A stretch of 64,000 bases of DNA, from NCBI GenBank assembly GCA_965219455.1, contig OZ244744.1:5472001-5536000 (forward strand), in the 5' to 3' direction. The translations under genes and the position numbers were made by a program. The stretch's first letter is position 1, and the number at the start of each line of letters is the position of its first letter. Below the pieces are notes generated by a model. The model saw only the letters and a list, made by a program, of their open reading frames with translations, had not been told where the DNA came from and ran no database searches. Positions 8,475 to 26,011 of the stretch are shown one piece after another. Source of the DNA: Candidatus Latescibacterota bacterium (GTDB lineage Bacteria; Latescibacterota; UBA2968; GCA-2709665).

Positions 8475-8502
8475 CTGTCCAGTCGTTAGAAATCGAAGCC
8501 GT

Positions 8503-9223: not shown

Positions 9224-9341
9224 ATAGTCCCCTCTCGGCGCTAACAGCGCGTTCGTTCAGATCAAAAGTCACGCCGTGAGCGCCCCGTTCCACTCACCGT
9301 GAGTGGTCATCAGATGAGGGATCAAGGAAGAGGCGTAGATC

Positions 9342-9566
9342 TTACGCGAACTCATAGAGCGGCACTGTCGTTGCCTGCTGGCGGTCCTCCTCCAGCAGGC
9401 GTTCAATCCTTCGAACCGTGTCGAGATTCAGCAGCACATCGCCGCAAAAGGAACAGACTTCAGCAGGTACATGGTCGATGACGATCACTTGACCACGGCG
9501 CCGTACGGTGTGCATGATTGATTTCGCTTCGTATTCTCCGGGGCATCCGTCGATGCTGCGTTTCAT
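9342..9566 (-). CDS. YgiT-type zinc finger protein (MqsA-like; first Cys apparently lost)
   Basis: IVIDHVPAEVCSFCGD. The N-terminus MKRSIDGC lacks the first Cys. Confidence 0.8.
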   Translation of the reverse strand: MKRSIDGCPGEYEAKSIMHTVRRRGQVIVIDHVPAEVCSFCGDVLLNLDTVRRIERLLEEDRQQATTVPLYEFA

Positions 9567-9856
9567 ACGTAAAGCGCTTCCTCTTCAATGCGTTGAACGA
9601 AGGCAGTCTGGAGATTCTCACTTAGTCGGAGGATATCCACCTTGCAATCAAGGGCTTGCTCGATAAAGATGTAAAGTCCGACGAGATCGTCGAATCTTGG
9701 CTCTTTCAGCTCTACCACCAGGTCGACATCGCTCTTTTCATGTTGCATCCCAAAAGCATACGACCCATAGAGTCCGATCCGCTGGACGTCGAATCGACGT
9801 TTCAACTCAGGTTTGCTGTGGGCGAGAAAGCTGAGAATGTCCTGTCTCGATTTCAT
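9563..9856 (-). CDS. MNT nucleotidyltransferase (MntA-like), no HepT/DUF86 partner
   Basis: RIGLYGSYAFGMQHEKSDVDLVVE and LDCKVDI. Confidence 0.88.
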   Translation of the reverse strand: MKSRQDILSFLAHSKPELKRRFDVQRIGLYGSYAFGMQHEKSDVDLVVELKEPRFDDLVGLYIFIEQALDCKVDILRLSENLQTAFVQRIEEEALYV

Positions 9857-9911
9857 TGCCGCTTCTCAAATTATGGGTGAGTACGTTCAATGAAGGCATC
9901 AGAGGCGGTGG

Positions 9912-10081
9912 ACTACGAAATACGCGAAATATCGCGAAACAGGATTACGCGAAAGATGCTGTCTATAGTTCGTTTACGAAACGTTCGTATTCCAGTCCTG
10001 GATGATGTCCGAAATTGACGAGCAAGCCGAGTTTCACGCCTGTCGATCATAAATTTCGCGTTTTTTCGCGACTTTCGTAGT
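9912..10081 (-). mobile_element. Internally deleted copy of the IR-bounded GxxExxY element (170 bp)
   Basis: Inverted repeats at 9912-9939 and 10054-10081. 9963-10046 encodes STGVKLGLLVNFGHHPGLEYERFVNEL*, identical in protein to the C-terminus of 19967-20353. Followed by a helicase-tail copy (RIICPMGLIN) at 10082-10109. Confidence 0.85.
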
Positions 10082-10128
10082 TAATCAATCCCATAGGGCA
10101 AATGATCCGCTCTCCTGCCAAAACTTCA

Positions 10129-10326
10129 TCAGTCTGCCACGTCAGACCGAAGAATCGCCTGATTATCCAACCTCTTCCCTGCGTCGAGGATTTCAACGCC
10201 CGCGATCTGGCCGGCTTCATCGTAGTCCAGCGCGATTCCTTCCTCAATGAGGTCCGTCGTCACCGTTGTATCCTTAAGGCGAATGTATAGGGCATCCACC
10301 TTATGATCGTAAGAGATCTTCACCAT
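10129..10326 (-). CDS. DUF2283 family protein
   Basis: KISYDHKVDALYIRL...LDYDEAGQIAGVEILDA. Confidence 0.85.
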   Translation of the reverse strand: MVKISYDHKVDALYIRLKDTTVTTDLIEEGIALDYDEAGQIAGVEILDAGKRLDNQAILRSDVAD

Positions 10327-10379
10327 CGCCGCCTCATATTTCGATCTGGAGCGCAATCTCGCATGCTCACAGAGACCGC

Positions 10380-13300
10380 TCAGTCTAATACACTGAAATA
10401 GCCCCTACGTAGTAAATTTTCCCGCGCCTGTCGAGCGTTCTCACGAACTCGTTCGTCTTCGTGTTCAAGCCCGGCTGTCAGGATGGCCTTTGCATCGTCG
10501 GTTGGAATGACGAACCTGCCGCTTGTAGGCACGGCATTGATAAGCTTTTTAAAGCATTCGACCACCAGATGTGTATGAGTCGGGATCAGCGCTGGCATCA
10601 ATCGCGTAACCTCAAAAGGGAACGATGTTCTTCGGTGATCAACTCGACCCTCATCGAGAGTACCAGTTTCGTCGAGTATATTGTCAACGTCCAAAATCTC
10701 TGATAAAGCGTTCAGGCGCCACTCGACATCCAGGCACTCGGCTTTCAGCCATACGGCGACTTCTCGAAGTTCCATCGGTTCACGGGCGTCAATTCGCCAC
10801 TCGAAAAAGGCAATGATCTTGTCCTGTAAGCCTTCTTCTAGCGGATGGCCAGTATTTTGCAATGAATGCCCTACATAATTAAATAACGTCGCCCAATGCC
10901 TGTGTTCATCTTCGGTCTTCAGGTAAAAGCGTTCCAGCAGACTTTGGTCTCCATTCAGTGGATATACGCCCCACAGATAATACGTAAACAAATGTTGACC
11001 TAGCTTTGAGATCAACTCCCGTCCGATTCCCATTTGCTCGTTCAGGGAATGCAATTGTCCCAGCGCAAACTCGAAGTCGTCTCGAAATCTATAAAAAATA
11101 CGCTCGTAGGGGCGCGACCAGCGAAGGAAATTCCCAAACGCCGCCCGCCATGCGTAATTATCGCTTGTCGGAAAAATAGTGGATTTTTGGGTTATAGCCC
11201 ATTTCTCTTCGAGATTGAATATCCAACCATATAGCCGTCCGAGAATGGCATATTCGGGAATAGTCAGAGAATGCTCTGCCCGGGTCCCGCTCCGGCATTC
11301 AATGATCGCCTTCATTTCCGAAACTTCTGCTTTTTCGTCGTGTCTGCGCAACCAGAATCCAAAATTGACCAGAATCTCCAGAGCACGACCGCGGGTCGTG
11401 TTAATAGCATCAGTCAGCGGGTCTTCTCTATCCAATATGGTCTGACTGCCTTGATCCAGATCGGAATCATATTGCGTGCATAGCAACTTAAGGAGCCTGC
11501 CCAGCTGTCCGCGGACTACGATTGGCACGTTCACATCCCGTTTGACACAGGCTTCGACAAAGTCGCAGACAGCTCGCCGCGAGGAATGCCAACTAGGAGA
11601 CTCCCGTGATTCATCTGCAAATCGCGACCTTCTAGTACCTTCCTTACTCTCCGCTTCGGGACGGGTAAGTGTCCAGACGCAAAACCCTAACCATTGTTCA
11701 AGCTCGTCGAAATTCTTGGCACTCACATGGTCCCGCATTTCATCAACCATTGCCCGTACATAGATGGGCCGCAGTATGTTATCACGATTATTCATCCAAA
11801 ACTGTAGTCTATCTTTGTTCGGAATGATAGAATCCTTGAAAACCTCTTTGAAAGAAGCGGTCAGCGCTTCAATACTGATCTGAGTGAGCCCATTTTCTCG
11901 GTCCCAGTGTTCGTCGTCCCAGGCGTTTATGTAAGTGAGTAGATCCTCATCTGAAAAGCGCGCGAGCTCTTCGGGAGGTATCGGGCTGCGAAAGGTAGTA
12001 ACTCTATCTTCTGCAGAAAAGCTGACGGACGAGTAGCTCTCATCTGTGATTTCTTCTGCGGTTTCATCGGCTTCCAAGCTACGGAAGTAGTCCTCATATT
12101 TCCCAAAGAGCACTGGTGCGAACGGCCTGAGTTGCTGGCGATGGAAATACCTTCTCCGCTGCTCGAAACCAGTCTCAGTGAATTGCTCACTTGTCCATTC
12201 GTGAAATTCTTCCTCTGGAGGCCCGCATAGAATCTTATCGAAGATTTGTGTTCGTTCGGCAATCGAAAGCAACTCATCTCCGAAATGCTCACACGCCAGA
12301 CGTATCATCCGCTGAAACTCATACTGGTGTTCCCGTGTCGCATAATTCCCATGTCCGATCATTGACTCTTGAATCCACGGCTTAGTTTGCTCATTTGGGT
12401 GCAGCGAGTAAAGATGCTGTCGAACACGCTTGAAGACATCCCAGCGTCCATTCCTCAAGGCGTTATCCAAAGTTTCAATTGCCTCGCTAGTTTTGTCAAA
12501 AACCATTTCGCAGGCAAAGGTAAGTGTACGGACAAGGGTTTCTCGATGGTCATGATAGGCACGGCTTTGCCTGTCGAGTCTCGGACACCAGATTTCCGAT
12601 GAATCCCGACTCGACCCAACTTCGAGGAAGTCTTGACCGTGCTCATAACGAATCATGCTCGCTGCCGCATCGATAAGTATACGGGCAACCCGATATGGCT
12701 CTTTCTCGGCTATCGGGCGAATGCCATTTTCAAGGATAGCCCGATAATTCTCGTGAAATCGTGGTGCTGGATTCGGCAATGCCAACATAGATGTCACTTG
12801 ATCTTCGATGGAGGACGTTTGATCCTCCTCGATCTCCCGATGACGGTTCTGTTTTTCTTCGGCATCTGGGTCCGGGACAAACTGAATGAGTATATTTGCG
12901 AATTCCAACGCAGCGTCTGTTTGGCACGTGTCAGTCCAATGTGCTAGCAACTCGGGATATTGAAACGGGAAGAATTGGTGTTCAAGGTTGGCGTATTCGA
13001 GCATCTTGGGCTTCAGGCGTACGGACTGTTCACCGCCAAGTGCCAATGCTATGTCCAAAATAGCAGAATAAACCCTTGGATTATCGACTGCCGGAAGCTG
13101 CAAGACAATTCGAATAGTCTCAGAGACAATTTCCATTGAGGCGTCTTTGCACAAATTCTTTAGATATTCAAGCTCAGGCCAGAAAGGAAATTGAATTTGA
13201 CCGTCTGCCGATTCGACCACATTTGGTGGATCTCTGAAATAGCCATTTTGATGAAGAGGGTCCAGCCATATGTGATTAGTGGTGTTAAGAAAGAAATACC

Positions 13301-14052
13301 TGTAGTTCTCACCACGGCTATGAAGCAGCTTTAGCGCTCGATTTATTTCAATGGATGTGGGAGCGCTTCCCCTACCTAATATCGCCTTAAGTTCGGTGAG
13401 ATCTTCAGTGACAATTGGCACGGTCGGGTCGATGGGTTCCTCAATGAAGTCATCCGAGGTTAGCGCCGGTTTAAACGCTTCGACGTATTCTATCAAAGTG
13501 CCGTAGTAGGCGATGAATGGCCGCAATTTACATGCCAGTGAGAAATCCCCATCAGCACTCACGACCGCGATACTCGCTTTGTGCCTCTCGTGGTAGTCAT
13601 CCAACGCACTAAGAACAAAGGCATCCGGAAATTCCTTTGGCTTTTTCTTTGAAAACGGTGCCTCGATGGAAAAATACCAGTTCACTACATCGTTCAAATC
13701 TCCAACCAGCGGCAGTTGTTCAACGGTAAAATGCTCCTTGAAGACTTCCCACTGGTGCTCCAGTTCTGTCAGGCACTTTTCCTCCAACTTAATTCTTGGA
13801 GGTAAATCGCCTAACGAAAGTTCGCTAATCGGATGAGTATTATGGGCTTTATCCACGGCAGCAGCGGAATCTCTCGCTCTTTTTTTTATAGTGACGCAAG
13901 AGTTCTCGCTCCATCATTTCGGGTACTAATAGCCGAAGCCCACCCTTAACAAAAGTATCCTTTAGGATCTTAAACTCAGACGTATCCAGCTTGAGACCAT
14001 TCCTCACGAAGAATTCTGTATCGATATACAGTGATGTCGGTACGTGTCTCAT
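10380..14052 (-). pseudogene. Large PIN-like domain protein (~1223 aa if restored), frameshifted at an A8 tract
   Basis: The N-terminal part has LYIDTEFF...LLVPEMMEREL. The C-terminal part has APFSKKKPKEFPDAFV and VVSADGDF (PIN acidic motifs) followed by a long helical region. Removing one A at 13880-13887 joins 13849-14052 to 10380-13856. Confidence 0.8.
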
Positions 14053-14334
14053 GTGCACAAATCGGGATATCCAGATAAACGGACAAAATTCGAGAATTGA
14101 CCGACGAATTCGATTGAAATCGGTCCGGGGTCCAATAGCATCTAATGGGTCACACAGACACTCAGAAATCGAAGACCGTCGGGCCAATTGATTGGGTGCG
14201 ACTATTATTATCTAATTCTTCGATGTAATCATGAGAATTGAATTCACCACACCACTCTGTGCGGGATTCACATTGAGAGCTGATGAGGTAACTTGGTCCT
14301 TATTGATAATGCGAACTCCGCCATGTTCGCATCC

Positions 14335-15321
14335 CTAAACCCCGACACCTCGTAATTCGTTTCCGAGGATGAGGTTTTCTGGGGCGGGAACCCAATTATC
14401 ATCAGTGGGAAGGAGTAGTTGAGCTCTAAGTTGCCGCTTGTACCGTTGGAGTCCATCTGCCCTCCCCATATTTCGCAAATGTGTGGACCTTGCAGAATTC
14501 AAATGAATCGAATAGTCGCCGTTGACGTACAGTAGGCCCGTGTCGTACGATCGATGATGTAGAGCGCAAAGGGCCAAGCCATTGCTGACTGCATCGAGGC
14601 CTTTTGGATGGGCATGAGGAACAATGTGGGCCGCATCCACAAGATCCAATTGAATCCCGCACATTGCACACGTATGGGCATATCCATCCAGTACCATTTG
14701 CCTGAACTGAGCGCTTCGAGGATATGCAATGCGGGTTATAGTGACTCTTTGTCGGTTTACCTCAACCGGTCGGTGAAGGGGCTGTCCGAGTGGGGTTTTA
14801 CAATGAACTTCAAACAGCTCTTGGAGCTCTTCGTCGGCGGCTTGATGAAGCACTGATGAGTTTTCAACATACAAACCGATGAGGTCAGGCCGGAAGTTGA
14901 TCACGTTTTGCCCGTCTGAATCGATATACGTAGAGAATCCCTTTGTCATTGCCGTACGCATTGATGATACACGAGTATAAACGGAAAACCGCTGGGCTCG
15001 TGGATTGCGATCAAGGAATCTATCTGGATCCCATGCGCTAAACGCCTTTACATCTGCGGAAAAACCTAAGACCAATACTGTGTCGCCGGATTGCTTGTCG
15101 TTTTTTAGTTTCGTAGGCAGATGGCCTGGGCATTGGATCCGATATTCATCTGGATCAGTGCGTATAGCAAAATGGATGTTGCCAATGAATACCGAAAGAT
15201 ACCGTCCTTTATAGTAAAATCGGTACGGGTTAACTCCACCGGCGAAGTAGACAGCAGGCGTTTGCTGGCGGAGGGCGTCGAATAACGCATGAAAAAGGTC
15301 GGTCTTGTCGAGTAGCGCCAT
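14335..15321 (-). CDS. HNH endonuclease with uncharacterised N-terminal domain
   Basis: CAMCG...VDAAHIVPH...NGLALCALHHRSYD; directly downstream of the methyltransferase. Confidence 0.9.
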   Translation of the reverse strand: MALLDKTDLFHALFDALRQQTPAVYFAGGVNPYRFYYKGRYLSVFIGNIHFAIRTDPDEYRIQCPGHLPTKLKNDKQSGDTVLVLGFSADVKAFSAWDPDRFLDRNPRAQRFSVYTRVSSMRTAMTKGFSTYIDSDGQNVINFRPDLIGLYVENSSVLHQAADEELQELFEVHCKTPLGQPLHRPVEVNRQRVTITRIAYPRSAQFRQMVLDGYAHTCAMCGIQLDLVDAAHIVPHAHPKGLDAVSNGLALCALHHRSYDTGLLYVNGDYSIHLNSARSTHLRNMGRADGLQRYKRQLRAQLLLPTDDNWVPAPENLILGNELRGVGV

Positions 15322-15340
15322 TTCCGATAAGCCTCGTTGA

Positions 15341-18300
15341 TCAAACTAAGGAAATCTTCTCGACGATTTGAAAATCAATCGAGTATGTCGACGATATCCA
15401 TTCATCAATTTCGCGCAAACGGCGATCGGAGGGCAAGTCAGTAAGGCTTGATGGCATGAATCTTTCCTTTATCGATGTAGGTATATTCTTCTCACCGGCA
15501 TCCTGGTTTATACCGCGCACGAGTGAAACGAATGAGAACAACTCTTTAAGATCATCCCAACTTGCACCAATTCCTGAAAGGAACACGAAGTCGGCCCTTC
15601 TCGTTAGCGACGATAGTCTTTGGTAGTTGAAATTGCCGATGTATTTGCCAGCGTTCTTCTTGAAGACAAGCGCAGAATATCTATAATTGTGCAGCACCTC
15701 TCCGATGATTGCCAATCGATGCAAATGATCCTTTGGAATCGAAGAGATCGGTGCAACGAGATCCTCAAGTAACCAATTTGTGACGTGGAATCCATCACCC
15801 CTAGTTAGCCAATACCAGAAACCCGCGTCGCCCCCTGTGATCGCGAGAGCGGCGAAGGCCTCCTCTTTCGAACCCAACGCAACCCAGCCGGATTGCGACG
15901 GAACATGAACACTTCGGTCATCGAGGTGCAATACTGGTGGCGGCTCAATATACGTGGAGATGAAATTGCGCGCGGTTGGCGAAAATCCTAACTTGACAGA
16001 TTCACCACGTAGACCATGGCCCGAAGTTAAAACTGAAGTAGAAAACTGATTATGCATTGCTAATAATTTCGCTCCAAAACGGTTCGTTAGGCGGGGAATG
16101 CCGAAAGTTTCGTTCGGCATCACGTCATCGACTTTGTTGTAGGATATATTGTCCAACAGATAATCACGATAGGCTGCGCGCCACCTGTATAGACGGGTAG
16201 CAAACGAACCGATTTTTCGCGCGGAGGAATTCAGCCAGATTGTGCATCTCTGGCTAACTCCAGAAAATAGTGCGGCCGGTATGTTATCGAACGAAGAAAA
16301 CCAGTGAGTCCCGGTGTTCGCCAAAAGTTCACGTAGACCTGAAAACTCAAAGCTAAATGTCGTTGAAAGAGGAACAATTAACCCACGGCGTCCGCACCGG
16401 CTTGTTATGTGGTGCGACTGTACGACCACGTAACCATATATGTCGGGGAATCTTAAGCTCGTGGTAGACCGTACTATATAACCAACCGACTTGCGGCTTA
16501 CATAGGGAGGATTTCCGACAATCACGTCAAATCCGCCCTGTCGCATGATGCCGTAGAATTCGACAAACCAATGGAATGGCTGGTGACTGTTACGCCATTG
16601 CTCATAGGTAGCCGTGTCGCTTTCTTGAACGCCGTACTCGCTCGCCAAATATCGATCCAATTGTCGCCGCAGATCATCTAATCGTCTTCGCAATACTAAC
16701 TTCGCATTGACGAAAGCACCGGCGTCCATGTTCAAGCCGGTCTGCATGGTGTGGAATATGCGAAAAGCTCGGTTCGCTAATTCGGCGCGTTCTTCGATGT
16801 CGGGAAGAGATTGTTCCTTAAACAAGTCGCCCCGTATAGCACGTCTCACATCGTGGAGAGACGTAAAGCCAATCAGTGTGTTGCCGGCGCGTATATTGAA
16901 ATCGATGTCGGGCAATGGCTCAATCTGTTCGTAGCTTTTCAGTTGCGCGATGAGTTTAAGAAAGAGGCGCAATTTGCAGATTTCTACGGCCTCTTCCATG
17001 ATGTCCACACCATAGAGATTGTTGATAATGATGGACTTGAGTATGAAATATCGTTCACTGGGATGGGACTCGACCTGTTTGAGTATCTGTCGGAAGTCGC
17101 TCATTTTCTCGGGGCGGTGTTTACGCTTAGAGCGCTTCAAATCGTCCAGTAGCCCCCGCATAACCTCGAGGCAGGCAATGTAGATGGGCTCCAGGATGTT
17201 GAGCGCCGCGAACAGGAACGCGCCAGAGCCGCAGGTTGGATCCAGAATCGAGACGCTGGTAAGCCCTTTCCAGAAAGCACGGATCAATTCGGGGCCCTCG
17301 CTCCCGCGGATGACGTCCTCCGCGAATTGCTCAATGTCAAGATTATACGTGATAAGGTCATTGATGGCTGCGACCTGACCCGAAGCCAGTTTGGCGTAGA
17401 TGTCCTCATAGTGACGTCGGCGGGCGACGTGTTCGCGCCAGGTTTCAGTTGGCAGGGCATAGTCGCTTGTCGCGGGTTCATTCCAGCCGGCGCGTTTCGA
17501 GACATCGTCCACTCCTGCTGCTATCTCCTTAGGCAGGTCACGTTTTTGCGCGAGGTCTTCCTTCTTGTGAATATCGTACGTAATCCCGTGGCGGACCGCC
17601 TCGTAGAAATACCGATCCGGATCGTCCCGTAACAGCCGCCATACCCCACCGTCGGGTTTGAATTCGATGGAACAAGCCTTCTTCGCCCGGTCGAAAAGAA
17701 ACGGGATGACGGTGTTGCGGCTGATGTATCCGGTGATATCCTCTTTGGTGTAGTACGCCCCCATCTGCTTCTGGTTGATGTACTTTTCGAAGATGTAACC
17801 GAGCACGTCCGGGTTGATTTCATTGTCGTTGCGTAGAGGCCGGTCGTCCAGGTGCCACGTATAGGCATCGAAGAAGTCGAAGATTCTCTCGAACGCTTCA
17901 TCCGGAATTTGGATATCCGGATTGTCCTGCTCCAGATCGTGTACGTCGAACAGGCCGCCATTTAGAAATGGCACCTTACCGAGCAACGCTGCCAACTCCG
18001 GGGGGCGATTCTCCTCCGGTTGCCCAAGACCGTCATGGAACAATTTCAATAAAAACAGCCGGTAGAACCTGTTGAATCGCCCGTTTCCATATTGCTGCCG
18101 CACCCTTTGGAGCCGGTCCCGGAGGTATTCGGTGTTGTTGTCGAGGAACCCGCGTTTTTGAATGAAGTAGATGAACATCATTCGATTCAACATCAGCGAA
18201 GCATACCACTCTCGGTCCGCCCGTTCTCCGATTCCCTCGATGAAACCCAGAAAGTCCTGTTGTTCCTTCTTAAAGCGGTCGTAGAACCGTTTTGTGACCT

Positions 18301-18790
18301 TTTCTACGTCGAAGGCCGCGCGAACACGGCCGGATACGTCGACGATGGTAAGGTCATCTTCTTCGTCCAGTGTAAAGGCGAGATTCTCCAGCTTTTGGAT
18401 CAGTCGCTCTCCTGAATCCTCCTGGCGGAAGGACTCGGACCGGTGGCGGTCGGGCTGACCGGGTTCCCGCTTTACCCATTGCCATGCTTGTCCGGTTCGG
18501 TCGTGGGTGGCGTAAACGATGATGTGTTCGCGGACCTCTTTGGAGACAGCTGTTTCGATTTTCCGTCGAGTGGCATGTTCGGGAAACGTCGTCTCGGAGT
18601 CAGCAACACATTGGTAGGCGACCATGCCGCGTTTGTGGGCGACGGCCTCGAGGGCGAACGACTGCTCACCTACTTCAATAGCGGTATCGGCACCGCCATG
18701 GTCCCAGCCGAGTTCTTCGATAAAGAGCGTGCGGAGGTCGAATTTCTCAAGATGCGACCTGACTTTGTTTCTGTCTAGAATTAAGGGCAC
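15341..18790 (-). CDS. Large N6-adenine DNA methyltransferase (Eco57I/type IIG-like) with C-terminal target recognition region
   Basis: ILDPTCGSGAFL (motif I), YGVDI, FDVIVGNPPY (motif IV), FLNGGLF and GAYYT. Confidence 0.93.
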   Translation of the reverse strand: MPLILDRNKVRSHLEKFDLRTLFIEELGWDHGGADTAIEVGEQSFALEAVAHKRGMVAYQCVADSETTFPEHATRRKIETAVSKEVREHIIVYATHDRTGQAWQWVKREPGQPDRHRSESFRQEDSGERLIQKLENLAFTLDEEDDLTIVDVSGRVRAAFDVEKVTKRFYDRFKKEQQDFLGFIEGIGERADREWYASLMLNRMMFIYFIQKRGFLDNNTEYLRDRLQRVRQQYGNGRFNRFYRLFLLKLFHDGLGQPEENRPPELAALLGKVPFLNGGLFDVHDLEQDNPDIQIPDEAFERIFDFFDAYTWHLDDRPLRNDNEINPDVLGYIFEKYINQKQMGAYYTKEDITGYISRNTVIPFLFDRAKKACSIEFKPDGGVWRLLRDDPDRYFYEAVRHGITYDIHKKEDLAQKRDLPKEIAAGVDDVSKRAGWNEPATSDYALPTETWREHVARRRHYEDIYAKLASGQVAAINDLITYNLDIEQFAEDVIRGSEGPELIRAFWKGLTSVSILDPTCGSGAFLFAALNILEPIYIACLEVMRGLLDDLKRSKRKHRPEKMSDFRQILKQVESHPSERYFILKSIIINNLYGVDIMEEAVEICKLRLFLKLIAQLKSYEQIEPLPDIDFNIRAGNTLIGFTSLHDVRRAIRGDLFKEQSLPDIEERAELANRAFRIFHTMQTGLNMDAGAFVNAKLVLRRRLDDLRRQLDRYLASEYGVQESDTATYEQWRNSHQPFHWFVEFYGIMRQGGFDVIVGNPPYVSRKSVGYIVRSTTSLRFPDIYGYVVVQSHHITSRCGRRGLIVPLSTTFSFEFSGLRELLANTGTHWFSSFDNIPAALFSGVSQRCTIWLNSSARKIGSFATRLYRWRAAYRDYLLDNISYNKVDDVMPNETFGIPRLTNRFGAKLLAMHNQFSTSVLTSGHGLRGESVKLGFSPTARNFISTYIEPPPVLHLDDRSVHVPSQSGWVALGSKEEAFAALAITGGDAGFWYWLTRGDGFHVTNWLLEDLVAPISSIPKDHLHRLAIIGEVLHNYRYSALVFKKNAGKYIGNFNYQRLSSLTRRADFVFLSGIGASWDDLKELFSFVSLVRGINQDAGEKNIPTSIKERFMPSSLTDLPSDRRLREIDEWISSTYSIDFQIVEKISLV

Positions 18791-18809
18791 TTGGAAGTTT
18801 CCTGACGCG

Positions 18810-19268
18810 TTATGCCCGAACGAGATCGATTAGCGAAACGGTGTCGATTTCGTCGAATCGCGCGAAGTCGTCGTGGTTCTGCGTTACCAACGTTCGGATG
18901 CCATGGGTTGCCATTGTGGCAACGATATTGGCGTCATGCAACCCTTTGCCTTGAAGGTCATATTTCAATGCAAGTTGGCGCAGTTTGCCAGCGACATCCT
19001 GGGTTTCGTCAAAGAGTTGAAGGTGACGACGGAGCTCATCCACGTTGCCAACGACATCGCGGACGTTTAGACCAAATCCATTTGCACGAATGGGACGCGA
19101 TGCGACCACCATGTATTCCCTCAGAATCTGCCCACTTCCGGCGAGGCGAAGACCGCGCCTAGTGGACTCAGCCAGTAACCTTGTTGCTTCACGGTGTTGG
19201 GGCCGCGATTCGTCTGTCGCCGTTAAGAGCACGTTGGTGTCCAGAAACAGAATATTACCGGCCATCAT
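18810..19268 (-). CDS. PIN-domain (VapC-like) toxin
   Basis: LFLDTNVLL, QILREY, LHDANIVATM and LVTQNHDDF. Confidence 0.9.
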   Translation of the reverse strand: MMAGNILFLDTNVLLTATDESRPQHREATRLLAESTRRGLRLAGSGQILREYMVVASRPIRANGFGLNVRDVVGNVDELRRHLQLFDETQDVAGKLRQLALKYDLQGKGLHDANIVATMATHGIRTLVTQNHDDFARFDEIDTVSLIDLVRA

Positions 19269-19527
19269 CGCCATAGATCTCATCCCGTTTCCAGGACGTC
19301 GTCCTTCCAGTCCTGACTGTCACTATTTCCACCATTGGGACATCCGCGTCTGTCGTACTTGCCCCGTCAAACTCATCAAGACCGGATTCATCATCCGACC
19401 TGGGACGAAGAACGAAGCCGTCAGGCGCTTTCAAAATCTCGAGATCGTCTCCTGGACCGACCCCCAGCATGTTTAGCACCCGATTTGGCAGGGTGACCTG
19501 ACGTTCTGAGCTTATCTTTACAATCAT
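19255..19527 (-). CDS. AbrB/MazE-type antitoxin
   Basis: VKISSERQVTLP...LGVGPGDDLE; GGAGG SD; overlaps the PIN gene. Confidence 0.85.
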   Translation of the reverse strand: MIVKISSERQVTLPNRVLNMLGVGPGDDLEILKAPDGFVLRPRSDDESGLDEFDGASTTDADVPMVEIVTVRTGRTTSWKRDEIYGDDGR

Positions 19528-19549
19528 GGAGACCTCCTTCAAACCAGAT

Positions 19550-19600
19550 GGTGAGTAATCGAACTAGCACTGACGTGTCAATCCCGAAGCGAAGGGTCAT
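19550..19600 (-). pseudogene. Truncated PIN toxin N-terminus
   Basis: MTLRFGIDTSVLVRLLT overlaps the stop of the upstream AbrB gene, then is replaced by the leader of the next AbrB gene. Confidence 0.7.
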
Positions 19601-19841
19601 ACGATTGCTCCCGGAAGTCCTGGAGATCAAACGTCCCCTGTCCGCGCCGGATCTTATCGTGCAGCGTCCCGAGCCGGGAATGATCAATGCGTCTGGGCCT
19701 CAGAACGAACCCGTCCGGCCCTTCTACGATTTCGAGTTGGTCACCCGGGCCAACACCAATAGCGTCCAGCACCCGCGCAGGAATGGTGACCTGGCGTTTT
19801 GAAGTAATTTTGACAATCAAGGGAAATCGGCTGAGAGTCAT
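19578..19841 (-). CDS. AbrB/MazE-type antitoxin (paralogue)
   Basis: VKITSKRQVTIPARVLDAIGVGPGDQLE. Confidence 0.87.
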   Translation of the reverse strand: MTLSRFPLIVKITSKRQVTIPARVLDAIGVGPGDQLEIVEGPDGFVLRPRRIDHSRLGTLHDKIRRGQGTFDLQDFREQSYDPSLRD

Positions 19842-19844
19842 TGG

Positions 19845-20384
19845 ACTACGAAATACGCGAAAAGACGCGAAACAGGGTTAGAGGTGGTGAACTACGAAAG
19901 ATACGAAATGACGCGAAAGGGGTGGTGTTGTATACGAAAAATACGAAAAAATGGGAAAGATGTGGTTTATAATTCGTTTACGAATCGTTCGTATTCCAGT
20001 CCTGGATGATGGCCGAAATTGACGAGCAGGCCGAGTTTCACTCCTGTTGATTTCACGTAGTTGATGACTTGTGCGCGATGTTCATCTTTCAATTGTTTCA
20101 CTGCCTTGATTTCCACAATAATTCTGTCGAAACAGAAAAAATCAGGCTGGTAAAACTGCTTCAACGCCTGTCCTTTGTAATGAAGTTTCAAATCTATTTT
20201 CTCCTTGTACGGGATCGCCGAAGAAGTGAATTCCATTGAAAGACACTCCTGGTAAACCGCTTCAAGAAAGCCGGCTCCTTTTTCTCTGTACACTTCAAAA
20301 CAGGCACCGATAATCCGATAGCTTTCCTCTTTGTAGACGATTTTTCCGGTCATACATTCCGCGCCCTTTCGCGACTTTCGTAGT
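19845..20384 (-). mobile_element. IR-bounded GxxExxY element (540 bp)
   Basis: ACTACGAAATACGCGAAAAGACGCGAAA at 19845-19872, with degenerate copies at 19890-19918 and ~19931-19952, and an inverted copy at 20357-20384, enclosing the GxxExxY gene. Confidence 0.7.
19967..20353 (-). CDS. GxxExxY protein (PD-(D/E)XK-like)
   Basis: GAGFLEAVYQECL, YQPDFFCFDRIIVEIKA, QVINY and GLLVNFG. Confidence 0.95.
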   Translation of the reverse strand: MTGKIVYKEESYRIIGACFEVYREKGAGFLEAVYQECLSMEFTSSAIPYKEKIDLKLHYKGQALKQFYQPDFFCFDRIIVEIKAVKQLKDEHRAQVINYVKSTGVKLGLLVNFGHHPGLEYERFVNEL

Positions 20385-20943
20385 TAATCAAGCCCATAGA
20401 GCAGATGATTCGGGGCTCCCGCGGTTCATCCTCCACCTCGAGAACGCGAGCCCCTCTTTACCGACGATTTTTCCAGTCATGCATTTCGCGTCTTTTCGCG
20501 ACTTTCGTAGTTAATCAAGCCCATCGAGCAGATGATTCGGGGCCCTACGTGGTTCATCCTCCACCTCGATAACGCAGACTCCTCTTTGCCGACGACTTTT
20601 CCAGTCATACATTTCGCGTCTTTTAGCAACTTTCGTAGTTAATCAAGCCCATCGAGCAGATGATTCGCGGCTCCTGCGGTTCATCCTCCACCTTGAGAAC
20701 GTGGACTCCTCTTTGCCGACGAGTTTTTCAGTCATGCATTTCGCGTCTTTTCGCGATTTTCGTAGTTAATCAAGCCCATGGAGCAGATGATTCGGGGCGC
20801 CCGCGGTTCATCCTCCACCTCGATAACGCGGTCTCCTCTTTGCCGACGATTTTTCCAGTCAAACATTCCGCGTCTTTTCGCGATTTTCGTAGTTAATCAA
20901 GCCCATCGAGCAGATGATTCGCGGTTCATCAGGTTCATCCTCA
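20326..20943. repeat. Tandem array of ~5 units, period 127/128 bp
   Basis: Units start at 20326, 20453, 20581, 20708 and 20835. The invariant core GTAGTTAATCAAGCCCAT starts at 20380, 20507, 20635, 20762 and 20889. Confidence 0.95.
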
Positions 20944-23900
20944 CCGTGGATGATGCAAAGCCGTCCATCCTCCCGCATTTCGATGACCAGTCCGGCGAGA
21001 TCATCGTCAGAGATTCCACTGCGCAATTGGCGGTTCAGCGTATCCACAGCGGATTGGCGCGGCGGATATCGGTATATCTCGCCCACTGCCCTGCGAAGTT
21101 GCTCTGTATCGAAGAGTGTGCCCTCGACCCTCTCGGCGTGATTCTTAAGCCGTTCATAGGTGCGGAAGCGCGCACCCGAGGGTCTTCCCAGTTGGCCCCC
21201 GACCTAATTCTCCTCCTTAGCTATGCGCTCAGCGGCTTTTCGTACAAGATCGTGATGGGTTTCGTGCCGGGGAAGCGCCGGTGTATTTGACTTGCATTCT
21301 GCTGCACGCAGAATTTCGAACTGGCTTTCCGTGACGCTGTACCCGTCCCGGTCCATCCACGCGAGGGCATCGTTGCCCTGTGTTGTACGCATGTATACAA
21401 GAACACCGTCCTGCCGGTCCTGTGTATGTACGCCGGATTTGGAGGAATGGACGACGTGAGGCATCTCCTCCACCTTTTTCTTCAGCGACGGATCAGCAGT
21501 CGTGGCGTTTCTCCAGATCTGGTAGGCATACGACGCAAGATCCACCTCGGAATCGTCATCGCCATCGAGGACTCCGGTCTGTTCGTTATATAGATCGACC
21601 ACCGCAAGAGTGTCCTCGTCCTCAAAAAAGGCTTCGTCGGTTCCCACCACTTCGGCGTTCTGTTCGAGGCGTTGCCGTACCCGGGCTCGCAGCCGAATCA
21701 GACGTTCGATGCCCTCCGCGGGTAGGAAGGAATAGCAGAGGATGTTCGGCGCCGATTGACCGATGCGGTCCACGCGTCCGGCTCTTTGGATCAGCCGGAT
21801 AATCGCCCACGGCAGGTCGTAATTTACGACAATGGCGCAGTCCTGAAGGTTCTGTCCCTCGCTCAACACATCCGTGGCAACCAGCACCCGGAGTTCCTCC
21901 TCCGGCGCGATCCGCCCACCTTTCTCGTTGCTTGTGGGACTGAATCGCCAGGCCAACCGCGTGGGATCCGTGGAGCCGCCAGTAACGCCCGAGAGACGTT
22001 CGACGCCTCCGTCCATTAATTGACGTTCCAGGTATTGCACCGTGTCCGCGAACTGCGTGAATACCAGAACCTTCTCACCTGGATGTTTATCCACAAGGAT
22101 CTTCTGCAGAGCGGCAAGCTTGGCGTCGTGTGACGGAATCCATTCACCGAAGTTCTCCAGCATTTCACGTAACGTTTTCGCATCCGACACCAGGGCTTGC
22201 CGAAGTGTCTCGTCGAAATGACGCGGGCTCAGCCAGCGAAATCGCCTTCTGTATCGTTCGCGGTAGGCATGGTAGACTCGTGCGGCGTGGCGCCGGAAAT
22301 CTTCTTCTGTTCTGAGAGATTTCCGAGCTGGAAATCCACCGTCCCCGTCTCCGTCGTCGTCAGAATCGTCGCCGGCAGCACCGTCCGAGTCCGCGTCGAA
22401 AGATTGAGGGTCCAGCAGCCCTGCGTCTGTCGTCCCGATCGGCAGATCCAGACCGTTTTCTATGGCATGGATAAAGATGAAATTCCTCAGTACGTGTCGC
22501 TCAACCGAGAGCTGGAACGAATGACCGCTGCTTTCAAGGCGTTTGAATAGGTTCGTCCGGCAGAATCCCATGAGGCGCCTGCCGGCGCGCGACAGGTCCT
22601 GCAGGATTCGATCCTCGGTCGACGATGGCGGCGGATCGGCCGCGGAGGTCAGGTAGTTTGCCAGACCGTAACGCGGGAGTTCTAACCCGTTAATGGCCGA
22701 TACCACATTGTCGTCAAAGAGCCGGGCGTATTGTTTGTCGATATCGAAGCCAACTGTCCTGGGAACGCGGACGGGGAAATAGGATCGCGTGCCGTCTTCG
22801 AATGTCAGATATCGTCGGCCATTAGCCGTATCCAGCGTGGCATAATTCTCCTGAATGAAGCTGCGAGTGCGTCGTACAAGGTACAGGCGCATCAATTCGC
22901 GCCAGTCGTCCGCATATTCAGATTGCTCGAATGCCGCGAGCGAACGGACGGGCGCCTGGTGGCGTCGGATGAACTCGGTTTCGCCGATCTCTCGCAACAG
23001 GCGTTCGGGACGAATGCCCAGGTCTTCATTCTCAGACACAAACAACCGGATCTGGTTTGAGAGATCCTGGTAGGTCTTGTTGTATGGCGTGGCGGAAAGC
23101 AGAATGCACTTGCTTTCATTCTCCGCGATGTATTCCTGGATTGCCCGGTATCGCTTGCCCTCACGGTTCCTTAGATTATGACTCTCGTCAATCACCACGA
23201 GGCGATACCGGCGCATGTCCGGAAGTTCGCGGGTCGCGCGGCTGATCGAAAGAACCCGGGCGCGCATCCGATACTCTTCGCGATAATCCTTCCACATCGG
23301 CACCAGGTTCTTGGGGCAGATAATCAGCGTTTCAACCCCATAATCATCTTCAAACACGCGCGCTAAAGCCGTGGCCATTAGCGTTTTACCGAGCCCAACG
23401 ACATCGCCAATAATGACGCCGCCGCGTTTGTTCAGGTGATGCGCGGCGATCTTCACGGCGGCCACATGGAAATCGAGAAGCTTATTCCCGAAATCTCTCG
23501 GTATACGGAATTCCGTCAGACCCGCTCGGGCTTCCTGGGACAGGTGATAAGCCATCTTCACGTAAATATGGTACGGTGGGATCAACCGCGGCCCCGCCCA
23601 ACTCTCGTCGATTATCTGCGCGAGTTCCTTAGAAATATCAACGCACCAGCGGTCCTGCCAGCGATCTTCAAACCATTTCGCGAGTTTCTCACAGGAATCG
23701 TGATCCAGAACATCCACGTTTAGTTCGCCCTGGCCGGAAAGACCGGATTGCGTAAGATTGCTGCTGCCCAGGTACCCCACTGAAGGGTTGACGGGATCCG
23801 GCCGGAACAGCATGTAGAGCTTGGCATGAAGCGGATGTCTGAGGAAGAGCTTGACCACGACCTTCTTGGCCTTGATTTGCCTCGACAACCTGCGGAGTCC

Positions 23901-24242
23901 TGCCTCGTCCACGTTGCTAGGTGCGCCCGTCGCCAATTGGTCCCTGAACTGTTCCGCGAGCTTTTTCTTTTCTTGATTGACCTTCTGATTGTCGAGTTCC
24001 TCATTTTTTGCAATCAAACTCCTTGTATTTCGAAACTGCTCGTGAGGCGATCCATGCATGCCTACAAGCAGGCGGCAGCAGTTTCCTTCCCCACCCTGCC
24101 ATCTCTCAACATATTCATCGATCGCCCGCCAACCTCGCAAATTGAAGTAGCCCACACAGAAATCTGCGCGGTCAGAAACCGCCATTGTTTCCGCCAAAGC
24201 CAGCAAGAGACGCTGTTCAATATTGTCGAAAATCCGTGGCAT
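20859..24242 (-). pseudogene. PLD-nuclease + SF2 (SNF2-like) helicase, interrupted by in-frame TAG at 21204-21206
   Basis: LHAKLY...GSSNLT (PLD), DVVGLGKT, IDESHN, LSATP, LSEGQNLQ and QRAGRVDRIG. The reading continues in frame as EEN*VGGQLGRPSGARFRTYERLK...RIICSMGLIN. Confidence 0.88.
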
Positions 24243-24301
24243 CAGGCCTTCTTTCTATAGTCTCAGGTCTGTATCGCATCTGACAGCCAGAATTCGGCAA
24301 T

Positions 24302-24334
24302 ACCAGATATAGGCAAGTATCTGGTGTATGTCAA
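24302..24334 (-). promoter_or_regulatory. Putative sigma70 promoter with overlapping palindromic operator upstream of the helicase
   Basis: TTGACA (24329-24334)-17 nt-TATATC (24306-24311); inverted repeat ACCAGATA-N8-TATCTGGT at 24302-24325. Confidence 0.6.
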
Positions 24335-24677
24335 CCGGCCAGTGACAAGCCATTAAACCCAATCAACTATTAAATTCCTGATATCAATTCACTTAAAGTC
24401 AATTTCCGTGGCTTACTGGCCTGACAACGCGTCCATACTCACACACTATAGACCCTTGGGAAAACGTCGGCGCAGATTGCAAATGTTCGTCAGGCGCATA
24501 AAAAGAAACAGCCATTCAAACACGAATTTGAGTGGCTGTTGCCCGAGATCAAATACAATTGTGAGGGGCTGCTGGGGATGGGAGCGAAATCCGATAAGTC
24601 AATTTAGCAGAGCAATCGTTACACCGGACGGGAGAGCGGTTTCAGTACCTGAAAATCCTATTGATACAACCATATCG

Positions 24678-25256
24678 TTAGCCATTGTTGCCCCTTTGCA
24701 GGAACTGGATCCCCGAATCACTTATCTCCCAAATTCCTCGACGGCTATCACTGCGCAATAGACCTCTCTCTACCAACGTATTGCGTGCCCAAGCTGCGGT
24801 ATTACGCCAGCGCGGCATATCTGCGGTAGAAGCGAGGGGCTTGAAGTCAATGTCCCTCAGCGTATCCTTCATACGCTGGAGGACGCGCTCAAGTACTTCC
24901 GACATTGGCGCCGATCCACCCGAATCGTTGAGTGCTTCAAGTATGGGACGATAGTAACAATCCACTGGAGTACGCTTTCCTCGCGGAAGGCGGATCCGGC
25001 CTTCGACCGAGGTTCCCTTACTTGCCTTGCGCCGATCTCCGCGGAAGAGAGTCTCCCACTCGCCTCGTATAGTAGCGATCCTGTCGCGGAGGTTTTTGAT
25101 CTTTGCCGCACGCTCAAGAGCGTCTCTCGCCTTCTCGTATTCACCAACTTCGAAAGTGCGCGCGCCATCTTGGTTCACGAACTCTATCTCTGCTTCAATC
25201 TCTTCGAGTACAATGTCGAGCGCAGCCAGCACGTTAGTACGATTATCTTCGTTCAT
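24678..25256 (-). CDS. Mrr N-terminal winged-helix domain protein (no nuclease domain)
   Basis: YYRPILEALNDSGGSA...PRWRNTAAWARNTLVERGLLRSDSRRGIWEISDSG. Confidence 0.85.
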   Translation of the reverse strand: MNEDNRTNVLAALDIVLEEIEAEIEFVNQDGARTFEVGEYEKARDALERAAKIKNLRDRIATIRGEWETLFRGDRRKASKGTSVEGRIRLPRGKRTPVDCYYRPILEALNDSGGSAPMSEVLERVLQRMKDTLRDIDFKPLASTADMPRWRNTAAWARNTLVERGLLRSDSRRGIWEISDSGIQFLQRGNNG

Positions 25257-25315
25257 TGTCGCCTCCTTCTGATGGCGAACGCAAATTGCCGGAGGATACC
25301 ACTTCTCACTATAAC

Positions 25316-25525
25316 TTATTCAACAACAGGGACTTGAATCTCATATCGCATACCATTGTACACCACGTTATGATTGACAGGTAGAAAATTCTTGTCTTGC
25401 TCGACACCATCCTCAAGGGCCGCATGCGCCCTTGCAAGGTTCGGAAAGGACCAGGCTATTTGCTCACCGACTGTCCTGGGTACTGGTATGGCCGTTTTCG
25501 TCTCCATCCAATTTCTGTCAGACAA
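25316..25525 (-). CDS. Small hypothetical protein
   Basis: ORF co-oriented between neighbouring genes; no recognised motif. Confidence 0.3.
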   Translation of the reverse strand: MSDRNWMETKTAIPVPRTVGEQIAWSFPNLARAHAALEDGVEQDKNFLPVNHNVVYNGMRYEIQVPVVE

Positions 25526-25558
25526 CCGCCAATCCGTCAGTCCGGCCTATCCGTATCG

Positions 25559-26011
25559 TCAGCCGCTGCTTCTGTCAAACTCCAAGCTGCCGGCCTGTTG
25601 ATAGAGTTCGGCCAAAGCGTCTTCGGCTTTTTCATAAGTCTCTCGCAGCGTTCGGTCTTTCCTTATAAGTGGATGGCTGCCAATGAATTGATAGATGTAG
25701 TCCACCGCGACGGAGGCTCGATCCATGAGTTCGAAATAGTGGCCGTCGTTTATTGCGTTATCCGAATCTTCGGGAAAAAGGGTTGATCCACCGTCTGTTG
25801 TATTTTCTTCAAGTATCGGGAAGCGGAATGCCTGGAGAAAATACCTTATGTCTTCTCTTAATTCATGAGGGGTTTCCCCCATAGGTTCGACCGGTTCTTC
25901 CGTCCAGTTCTCTATGCTGCCGTCTTCGCCGTAATAAACCTCGTGGACACAATACGTCACCGAGTCGGTTTCGGTATGACGCTTCCTGATGACCCTGTAG
26001 TCCCACGTCAT
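25559..26011 (-). CDS. Hypothetical protein (WxYRV...HEVYY family)
   Basis: MTWDYRVIRK...VHEVYY...WTEEPVEP; AGGAG SD upstream. Confidence 0.75.
   Translation of the reverse strand: MTWDYRVIRKRHTETDSVTYCVHEVYYGEDGSIENWTEEPVEPMGETPHELREDIRYFLQAFRFPILEENTTDGGSTLFPEDSDNAINDGHYFELMDRASVAVDYIYQFIGSHPLIRKDRTLRETYEKAEDALAELYQQAGSLEFDRSSG

Follow-up and report, generated by a model that had tools for sequence, protein, structure and literature searches.

A GxxExxY nuclease gene boxed by phased inverted repeats in a defence operon of a Candidatus Latescibacterota bacterium: a candidate REPtron-like unit

The locus behind the helicase gene

The DNA analysed here is a stretch of 64,000 nucleotides (henceforth the window) from Candidatus Latescibacterota bacterium (GenBank assembly GCA_965219455.1, contig OZ244744.1, positions 5,472,001 to 5,536,000), in which a small gene of the GxxExxY (PDDEXK_3) family lies between inverted repeats, here called arms, behind the helicase gene of a defence operon. 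Coordinates of the features are collected in Table 1; L numbers denote the loci compared (L001 is the window's own locus) and G numbers the genomes (G000 is the window's own). Read along the minus strand, the helicase gene (24242-21204) is followed by its in-frame continuation (21203-20859), a tandem array (20942-20325), the GxxExxY gene (20353-19967), further repeats (19958-19845) and a gene for an AbrB/MazE-type protein (19841-19578). The 28-mer ACTACGAAAnnCGCGAAAAGACGCGAAA finds nine matches in the window at up to three mismatches and none in 100 shuffles. Plus-strand copies start at 19845 and 19891, minus-strand copies at 20357, 20484, 20612, 20739 and 20866, and an additional arm pair is present at 9912(+)/10054(-). 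The arm at 19845-19872 is complementary to 20484-20511 and to 20739-20766 at 26 of 28 positions each and to the gene-proximal copy at 20357-20384 at 23 of 28. Each arm is made up of three CGAAA boxes, the best internal period being 10. The original prediction, made from the letters alone, had described the GxxExxY open reading frame (ORF) as lying between 28-bp inverted repeats of three CGAAA boxes, with 26/28 identity for the copy at 20484-20511, and both statements hold. Upstream, five copies point geneward; downstream, two do so, as does a degenerate third, and the gene is therefore boxed by inverted arms. Inspection of the sequence by eye revealed no inverted repeat beyond the 28-bp arms when the helicase-tail side was compared with the AbrB side. 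The outer arm terminus (19845-19853 and 20376-20384) reads ...CGTAGT outward; other arm types end on GTGG, GCGG or ATAG. A Pfam scan of 34 ORFs (window 1-42 kb) yielded no transposase or integrase family, in agreement with the earlier statement that no transposase or recombinase is encoded nearby.

Each 127-bp unit of the array joins the ~20 final helicase codons to the ~11 initial GxxExxY codons and includes one arm, as seen in an alignment of the units. Five units are present in the window's genome versus two in its close relative L002. The ORFs of the array units comprise 30, 30, 43 and 30 codons, and an ATGA overlap is found at the end of only one of them. In the DNA runs, the array is covered by contigs of ~150 nt only. 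The downstream 46-bp repeats are plain tandem duplications, with two to five or more copies of the downstream arm in relatives. We take the array to be a tandem duplication and not a device. Two other interpretations were rejected: a chain of coupled mini-ORFs, because three of the four unit ORFs end at a TGA 27 nt before the next ATG, and a diversity-generating retroelement acting on the repeated helicase C-terminus, because the five units also differ at bases other than A and a reverse transcriptase is absent among the scanned ORFs.

The helicase frame contains an in-frame TAG (21204-21206) as codon 1013, where homologues carry Gln. Contigs of runs X1 and X4 confirm its A at 21206, and the relative present in X5 has a G (CAG). 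Judged from sequence, the helicase of the window strain is probably truncated or inactive. It gives weak, sub-threshold NCBIfam matches to DrmD and to a PLD anti-phage protein. The best 120 homologues of its C-terminus measure 1118-1127 aa, fragments aside, and the 114 codons past 21204 therefore belong to the helicase. In 98 of these 120 homologues the protein ends on ...ICS[ML]GL plus a short unrelated tail, mostly of 3-6 residues. In 16 homologues the tail is long and encoded by the arm (INYE[NS]REKTRNx, with the variants IDDKSREQTRKD and MNDEKRERTRKL), in four it is short and arm-encoded, and the remaining two lack the motif. The arm therefore replaces the natural last residues of the helicase and supplies its stop codon, and the proposal that the tail NYENREKTRNV is arm-encoded is borne out. 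Cassettes of this kind sit inside defence operons and change how a defence helicase ends. A TTG overlaps the helicase stop (TTGA), and the GxxExxY ATG overlaps a TGA (ATGA). The accompanying idea, that the host gene stays intact and translation of GxxExxY is coupled to it, is valid for simple relatives (L011, and L007 ahead of a truncated GxxExxY gene) but not for the window with its nonsense codon and its array. Helicase-to-GxxExxY coupling is not intact here because the array-unit ORFs are short and provide a single ATGA overlap.

The GxxExxY ORF itself belongs to PF13366 (E 4.5e-40, 137.1 bits, cut-off 22) and TIGR04256 (E 2.7e-40, 137.3 bits, cut-off 35). Its PD-(D/E)XK triad D71, E81 and K83 is invariant in 78 of 78 aligned sequences, and dN/dS values of 0.08-0.16 in seven pairs point to purifying selection. 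An AlphaFold2 (AF2) model (pLDDT 94.5) finds Cas4 SSO0001 as the top Foldseek match (E 6.5e-5, TM 0.50) and 3ijm as the top VIA-align match (Z 7.9, root-mean-square deviation 3.6 over 99 residues), followed by the BpuSI nuclease domain, Cas4, BglII and Hjc. The modelled fold is a generic PD-(D/E)XK fold, nearest to Cas4, a Spirosoma structural-genomics protein, type II nuclease domains and Hjc; since all Z values are middling, a nuclease subfamily cannot be assigned. Searched by sequence, the PDB gave no match at E<=1. Among 50,697 phage records there was no tblastn match, and only eight of 72,556 plasmid records matched, all at less than 60% identity, so that no obvious vehicle presents itself. 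In print, the sole statement we found on the function of GxxExxY/PDDEXK_3 is the entry 'Unknown' in a superfamily survey (PMC3424549).

Empty and occupied sites in related genomes

A search of 168 genomes of the phylum with the helicase tail was positive in 35, and 30 loci were inspected. Arms are present at the helicase end in eight of them, namely the window's own, L002, L004-L008 and L011, and absent in 22. In a member of the same genus (L003 in G057) and one of the same family (L010 in G060), the helicase ends on ...GLIRRQT* or ...GLI*; next come a spacer of ~60 nt, which contains a ribosome-binding site, and the same AbrB/MazE gene, with neither arm nor GxxExxY gene. At 19 more distant loci the helicase ends on ...GLIGQ* or similar, followed by the methylase gene or other DNA. 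Helicases free of the element, which the original prediction had called for as empty sites, thus exist in L003, L010 and these 19 loci. Among the helicase loci inspected, an arm-encoded tail was never found without a trace of the cassette; in L004, L007 and L008 it occurs together with decayed GxxExxY remains. Comparison with the congeners shows the cassette to be an insertion relative to their empty sites.

The position of the cassette within the operon varies. In L009 (G046), the helicase/AbrB junction is empty and a full cassette resides between the AbrB gene and the methylase gene; L007 and L011 have it immediately between the helicase and methylase genes, and in all three it directly precedes the methylase gene. 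The helicase stop overlaps the ATG of GxxExxY in L011 and that of the truncated GxxExxY gene in L007. L008 contains a second copy of the cassette behind a PIN gene. These alignments show the cassette at no fewer than three different junctions of the same helicase/toxin-antitoxin/methylase operon within the genus. The window and its relatives provide a natural series of states: empty, simply occupied with stop/start overlap, occupied with array, truncated, and ectopic with host sequence.

The right end of the cassette is constant (...TTTCGTAGTCCAATGACTCTCA(G/A)C) and gives the next gene its ATG and first codons, replacing that gene's own start region. The start ATGACTCTCAGC of the AbrB/MazE-type gene comes with this right end, and the empty sites start with ATGATTGTC after a ribosome-binding-site spacer of their own. 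As far as the aligned junctions tell, the change at the site is a replacement and not a clean insertion. Four DNA runs contain a relative of ~91% identity, whose contigs stop matching at the AbrB start; they rejoin at the helicase end in X4 and X5 and continue into the empty-site spacer in X7. A contig joint 20051->20483 was rejected as an event, as it corresponds to the paralogous remnant at 10 kb.

This remnant is a second, truncated cassette with its own pair of arms, retaining 97 nt of the GxxExxY 3' end (9951-10047, 91% to 19955-20051). It carries ~30-36 nt of helicase-tail-like sequence (10082-10118), though the helicase is absent there, and adjoins a DUF2283 gene. Overall, alignment shows that ectopic and tandem copies within the genus carry 10-36 nt of helicase 3' sequence ahead of the arm: ~30 nt in L049/L008 behind the PIN gene, ~31 nt in the tandem second copy of L006, ~13 nt in L009 and ~10 nt at remnants at 3.596 and 3.612 Mb. 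Cassette copies in other phyla begin at AACTACGAAA with no helicase-tail sequence in front. The unit had been proposed to be bounded by the 28-bp arms; the arms do bracket the gene, but within the genus the unit also takes along this helicase 3' end.

The helicase-proximal cassettes of L006 and L007 (G053 and G045) have suffered the same internal deletion between the 9-nt near-repeats ATCGTCTAC and ATCAACTAC, with loss of most of the gene. Its occurrence in two species, as read from these alignments, shows a recurrent, microhomology-type route from cassette to gene-less arm pair. In L004 and L008 (G051 and G047), CGAAT has taken the place of CGAAA in the boxes that flank the decayed cassette, and as this change is found on both sides, the two arms evolved in concert. 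The remnants at C1 3596448 and 3611690 (-) of the window's genome belong to a region duplicated ~15 kb apart; in both copies, a single arm and what is left of a decayed GxxExxY start (ATGGAAAAATCGTCC) come after a Fic-like_C gene. A composite repeat consisting of a CGAAA-box arm and, ~40 nt on, CACAA boxes (…GCCACAAGAGGCGCAAAACCACAA…) occurs twice, at C1 3007196 and 3651903 (+), next to unrelated neighbours.

Private arms in many phyla and arm pairs without the gene

Eighty GxxExxY loci from many phyla were fetched, 75 of which had enough flanking sequence to be searched for arms, defined as an ungapped inverted match scoring >=12 between the 150 nt ahead of the gene and the 200 nt behind it. 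Inverted arms are present at 53 of the 75 loci, compared with 15 of 225 when the downstream flank was taken from another locus, none of 75 with shuffled flanks and one of 67 with flanks displaced by 500 nt. The enrichment of inverted phased repeats at GxxExxY loci elsewhere, proposed as a check, is therefore real. The upstream arm usually abuts the GxxExxY ATG. The best self-period is 9 or 10 nt in 31 of 42 arms, and pieces from inside genes lack such a peak. The box words vary by lineage and include CGCGAAA, CACGAAA, CACGGAA, CACAGAT, CGCGAAT, CAGGAT, TGATT and others. By a crude ORF count, 28 of 46 cassettes lie between genes on the same strand.

Genomes with several GxxExxY genes allow arms and proteins to be paired. 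In four genomes with 3-9 copies, a gene's own flanks score >=12 in 11 of 19 cases versus none of 86 non-cognate pairs from the same genome (the count leaves out L148, which is tandem to L139). Because paralogues within one genome differ in their boxes, a single host factor as reader of the boxes, one of two options in the original prediction, is disfavoured. Between loci, a shared arm 6-mer is found in 93.5% of 31 pairs with at least 70% protein identity vs 9% of 364 pairs at 20-40% (Spearman 0.45 between arm sharing and protein identity, the pairs not being independent). Proteins 64-87% identical to that of the window (L049-L056) are accompanied by the same ACTACGAAA-type arms; they come from contigs labelled Gemmatimonadota, Victivallales, Thiohalocapsa, Verrucomicrobiota, Kiritimatiellia and Hydrogenedentota (one is without phylum), and those with 64-70% identity (L050-L056) adjoin unrelated genes. 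Comparison of these loci shows that the gene-plus-arms unit recurs across many phyla, the arm sequence tracking the protein sequence.

Arms are not restricted to places with a gene. We scanned 41 genomes of a genus labelled Phenylobacterium, using the reversed pattern as control. Arms are present in 12 genomes (40, 33, 24, 16, 10, 8, 8, 4, 4, 2, 2 and 1 copies), and the reversed pattern is absent everywhere. G172 contains one intact cassette and 40 arms, mostly in pairs 65 nt apart, in which identical arms enclose loops differing in length and sequence. Within each of these genomes the arms are near-identical, and the spacer variant is private to each genome. A protein at least 55% identical to the cognate one is encoded in eight of nine genomes with four or more arms vs four of 32 with fewer, three of these four being fragments (Fisher p 4e-5, overstated as the genomes are kin). 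In this one genus of related genomes, gene-less arm pairs thus appear to multiply where the cognate gene is present. The site between convergent genes that harbours the cassette in this genus consists, across species, of 29 nt (empty), a one-box hairpin, other inserts or the cassette in either orientation. L159 (G176:C60) has only a one-box hairpin (GGAACCACGAAccgcgTTCGTGGTTC) there, L157 (G210:C23) carries the cassette in the orientation opposite to that in G172, and in L164 one hairpin type is nested within the loop of another. The window's arm type was found in at least 132 stretches of metagenome contigs. Just three of 80 fetched metagenome arm loci have a GxxExxY gene within 700 nt, and a helicase tail precedes none of 84 metagenome arms.

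The window's own genome (C1) contains further phased three-box repeats: GGATA/CAGGAT boxes at ~567046, 572994, 1146527 and 4875751, GGACTRTGATT boxes at ~15 sites (e.g. 2369562-2369924 and 4395876-4416351) and CACAAAA boxes at 1489023, 3055773 and 4616064. Each of the three other PDDEXK_3 genes of this genome (570280, 2370085 and 4892394) has its own box type. A Pfam scan of 119 ORFs beside the other phased-box repeats found no consistent neighbour except two of these PDDEXK_3 genes. The 570-kb gene lies immediately behind a type I hsdR gene, and ~0.5 kb downstream of it a gene for a group II intron reverse transcriptase/maturase (~571170-572540; L031:5670-7040, -) is situated between two GGATA-box arms. 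The sole 23S_rRNA_IVP gene (four-helix-bundle, PF05635) of the genome, at C1 2594283-2594597 (-), has phased GGGAGAC boxes on both sides and in both orientations; because phased inverted boxes surround it, the same packaging is shared by an unrelated family of small proteins. Two PF01797 matches are present at 1.91-1.92 Mb. One is a RAYT-like Y1_Tnp gene (C1 1922948-1923169, -, in a 246-codon frame) flanked by CGAGGGCAGGATGCCCTCG-type palindromes, an ordinary REPtron that coexists with the phased-arm families.

The cassette of the window is embedded in a dense island of defence and toxin-antitoxin genes (7800-26000), the members of which are listed at the end of Table 1.

Table 1. Features of the cassette, the adjoining genes and the surrounding island (window positions)
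Feature	Position	Strand	Basis
PLD and SNF2 helicase of the defence operon, first 1012 codons, up to in-frame TAG	21204..24242	-	Pfam PLDc_2, SNF2-rel_dom, Helicase_C
In-frame continuation of the helicase, 114 codons plus TGA; last 11 residues NYENREKTRNV from the first arm	20859..21203	-	Translation with TAG=X; C-termini of homologues
Tandem array, 127 bp x 4.9 copies, 87% matches	20325..20942	-	TRF
Upstream arm copy 1, encodes helicase tail	20866..20893	-	Repeat search, complementarity
Upstream arm copy 2	20739..20766	-	Repeat search, complementarity
Upstream arm copy 3	20612..20639	-	Repeat search, complementarity
Upstream arm copy 4	20484..20511	-	26/28 complementary to 19845-19872
Upstream arm copy 5, 3 nt ahead of the GxxExxY ATG	20357..20384	-	Repeat search, complementarity
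GxxExxY/PDDEXK_3 nuclease gene, 128 codons, catalytic residues D71/E81/K83	19967..20353	-	Pfam, NCBIfam, invariant triad, AF2, PD-(D/E)XK fold matches, dN/dS
Downstream arm, innermost, degenerate, ATACGAAAA repeats	19932..19958	+	Sequence reading, TRF
Downstream arm, middle copy	19891..19918	+	Repeat search, complementarity
Downstream arm, outermost; outer end 3 nt from the next gene's ATG	19845..19872	+	Repeat search; predicted RNA minimum free energy pairing with 20357-20384
AbrB/MazE-type antitoxin-like gene	19578..19841	-	Pfam; L001/L002 compared with L003/L010
Eco57I/PglX-like DNA methyltransferase, the helicase's usual operon partner	15341..18790	-	Pfam, NCBIfam; L007, L009, L011
Second, truncated cassette	9912..10118	-	Arms 9912-9939(+) and 10054-10081(-); repeat search, alignment
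Two HEPN/nucleotidyltransferase-type pairs	8503-9223; 9342-9856		
DUF2283 gene	10129-10356		
PIN_12 protein, 1158 aa	10380-13856		
MTaX1-HNH	14335-15321		
PIN gene with two AbrB-type genes	18810-19841		
Mrr_N protein	24678-25256		

Interpretation and comparison with known systems

Our preferred reading, advanced with modest confidence, is that segment 19845-20384, which duplications of arm and junction have lengthened to 20942, is an inserted gene-plus-repeat unit, probably similar to a REPtron, i.e. a repetitive extragenic palindromic (REP) sequence family with its RAYT gene, but equipped with a different enzyme. The insertion-element or cassette reading of the original prediction is supported. 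The window cassette is likely one copy of a widespread repeat-plus-nuclease selfish element. Such an element is apparently undescribed so far: in the literature, supplements being outside the scope of the search, we found no paper that ties GxxExxY genes to flanking repeats. In this reading, the GxxExxY nuclease would bind its own phased boxes, with several protomers per arm, and would cut at or near the arms, whereupon host recombination or repair would copy the arms, with or without the gene, to new places. Such copying would explain why target duplications are absent, why the ends are ragged and drag along helicase tail (10-36 nt), why arms have grown in tandem on either side of the gene and why both orientations occur at one site.

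Several observations weigh against this reading. To our knowledge, PD-(D/E)XK nucleases have no strand-transfer chemistry, and the copying step therefore rests on inference. No target duplication is found at the helicase/AbrB or AbrB/methylase junctions or at nine gene-less hairpins of the Phenylobacterium-labelled genus, and no fixed insertion rule was seen at the junctions compared or at the gene-less hairpins. The ragged ends within the genus, where the helicase tail travels along, fit recombination as well as an enzyme-defined end. Co-divergence of arms and protein indicates joint inheritance, not recognition. The counts associating arms with the gene stem from one genus of related genomes, and one of these, G198, yielded 33 arms but no close homologue, its assembly being possibly incomplete (contig numbers >500). 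Excision or inversion, which the original prediction had suggested looking for, did not show up, nor did any new junction, in the same-strain contigs of four DNA runs, contigs being prone to drop rare variants. Finally, the own genome contains only 13 arm matches (<=5 mismatches) at six places, with copies 85-91% alike, and so gives no sign of recent movement; the window's copy looks old and is probably not moving now.

How do other explanations fare against these data? Small PD-(D/E)XK homing enzymes exist, and GxxExxY might be a free-standing homing endonuclease that cuts the empty helicase/methylase junction of alleles lacking the cassette, repair from an occupied allele then copying the gene together with host flank and the arms being incidental or protective. 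The coexistence of empty and occupied alleles of one operon junction within the genus would fit, as would the host bits that travel along (10-36 nt of helicase tail, possibly also CTCA(A/G)C from the methylase start), which resemble co-conversion. We nevertheless regard homing as improbable. Close relatives of the protein (64-70% identical, L050-L056) reside at unrelated sites in other phyla, the helicase tail precedes none of the 84 metagenome arms, and ectopic copies lie beside non-homologous genes (PIN, DUF2283); moreover, homing has no need of inverted phased arms and leaves the dozens of gene-less arm pairs per genome unexplained. Alternatively, the arms could be moved or generated by other machinery, with GxxExxY as cargo or hitch-hiker, e.g. 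a defence or addiction gene. This would agree with the location in a defence and toxin-antitoxin island, with the lack of a GxxExxY gene within 700 nt of 77 of the 80 metagenome arm loci, with G198 (33 arms, no close homologue found) and with the phased inverted boxes around the unrelated 23S_rRNA_IVP gene (2594283-2594597). A generic mover with interchangeable cargo does not, however, predict private arms for each paralogue (0/86 non-cognate matches) or arms that co-diverge with the protein; arm-rich genomes mostly hold the cognate gene (8/9 vs 4/32 of those with fewer arms), and no candidate mover is found near the cassette among the 34 ORFs scanned. We therefore find a mere passenger role for the nuclease rather unlikely.

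A role of the arms mainly as RNA, comparable to the intervening sequences (IVS) of 23S rRNA, appears unlikely to us as well. In the operon transcript, the two arms would form a ~28-bp stem that is cut by RNase III or insulates the insert, and spreading would occur by ordinary recombination or transfer, GxxExxY acting elsewhere. Indeed, in the predicted minimum free energy structure of 19830-20400, an arm-arm stem closes the whole cassette (-154.7 kcal/mol, z -2.5), size and layout match those given for rRNA IVS in PMC4990558 (428-444 nt, 28-bp terminal stem, small ORF, excision by RNase III), and the 28 of 46 cassettes between same-strand genes (again by the crude ORF count) are compatible with it. 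RNA-library contigs of a relative span GxxExxY and both AbrB genes, a weak indication as DNA may be present in such libraries and RNA ends are not visible. A stem would require nothing but complementarity, though, which leaves three phased box copies per arm (31/42 arms at period 9-10) unaccounted for, just as the multiplication of pairs with identical arms and unrelated loops in gene-holding genomes; a search of window positions 9500-21500 against all Rfam families at a permissive threshold gave no match. That the cassette is not mobile at all is very improbable; the repeats would then have arisen by duplication in place or be operators for a resident protein resembling a regulator, and deletions alone would have created the pattern in relatives. 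The copies in the own genome are old and local, and plain tandem duplication accounts for the 127-bp array as well as the 46-bp repeats downstream, with copy numbers that vary among close relatives (5 array units here vs 2 in L002). Yet several phyla harbour the same protein lineage with the same arms at unrelated sites, one operon has the cassette at three of its junctions, a truncated ectopic copy lies 10 kb off, and in a second genus a single site is found empty, with a one-box hairpin, occupied, or occupied in the opposite orientation. Taken as sequence evidence, these comparisons already largely refute the non-mobile explanation.

A bolder version of the preferred reading, which is tentative and to our minds still doubtful, is that a mobile element of ~0.5 kb, able to cross phyla, needs nothing beyond a lone 128-residue PD-(D/E)XK nuclease and two arms of phased 9-10-nt boxes. 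Its movement, by nuclease-triggered copying, would involve neither a transposase fold nor target duplication; the element would seed gene-less hairpins as RAYTs do REPINs, and would lodge between coupled genes by donating stop and start codons. GxxExxY/PDDEXK_3 is a large cross-phylum family without assigned function, for which its own phased arms and gene-less hairpin families provide a testable role. Phased-arm families may also explain a class of intergenic 'mosaic' repeats in many genomes.

Known systems share individual traits with the cassette. Miniature inverted-repeat transposable elements (MITEs) and insertion sequences likewise have terminal inverted repeats and deletion derivatives, as represented here by L006, L007 and the truncated copy at 9912-10118; in contrast to them, the cassette has no DDE, serine, tyrosine or HUH transposase among the 34 ORFs and no target-site duplication, and its gene-less copies share arms while their loops differ in length and sequence. 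Homing endonucleases, exemplified by the HNH 'ShiLan' element inserted in a phage methylase gene (PMC11855218), also combine a small nuclease gene in or behind a host gene that is not destroyed with empty and occupied alleles and a co-travelling host flank. The inverted phased arms, the many unrelated sites per protein lineage and the abundant gene-less arm pairs set the cassette apart from them.

IVS of 23S rRNA that contain an S23p ORF (PF05635, four-helix-bundle; 428-444 nt) resemble the cassette, according to PMC4990558, as elements of 400-550 nt with ~28-bp terminal inverted repeats and a predicted stem around one small ORF, with a sporadic distribution suggesting horizontal transfer and with an origin and mobility that are unexplained. 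The PF05635 gene of the own genome also has phased inverted boxes around it. The cassette differs in residing between helicase and AbrB-type protein genes and not in helix 25 or 45 of 23S rRNA, in containing another ORF family and in having arms that are internally phased repeats; RNase III processing is a feature described for IVS.

The closest parallel is offered by REPtrons and TIRtrons, REP or terminal-inverted-repeat families with RAYT/TIRYT (HUH Y1) genes as characterized in PMC3333891, PMC3116915 and PMC3733652. The enzyme in our case is a 128-aa PD-(D/E)XK protein (PF13366) and not a HUH Y1 transposase (PF01797), and the arms abut or overlap start and stop codons of the gene and its neighbours. 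A REP unit is described as a stem-loop with a 5-13-bp stem and a GTAG/CGTC tag (PMC3733652), whereas the arm consists of three direct boxes in 9-10-nt phase, is not self-complementary and forms a hairpin only together with a second arm. The Y1_Tnp gene of the own genome at 1922948 is flanked by a palindrome different from the arms. Read on the complementary strand, the arm in the window has GTAG at its outer end, which is also the tag that defines a superfamily of REPs and for which a GTGG variant is given (PMC3733652); this may be coincidence. If our preferred reading is correct, the cassette represents a second, independent case of repeats with a dedicated enzyme beside REP/RAYT, on a different catalytic fold. 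Dispersed gene-less copies, which outnumber the gene in the known families, are clear in the one Phenylobacterium-labelled genus of related genomes (up to 40 arms per genome); the own genome has only 13 arm matches, at six places. In the cassette as in REP/RAYT, the enzyme gene is flanked by inverted repeat copies (53/75 loci family-wide here), several enzyme paralogues per genome each have their own repeat family, and the repeats cluster with bits of flanking DNA.

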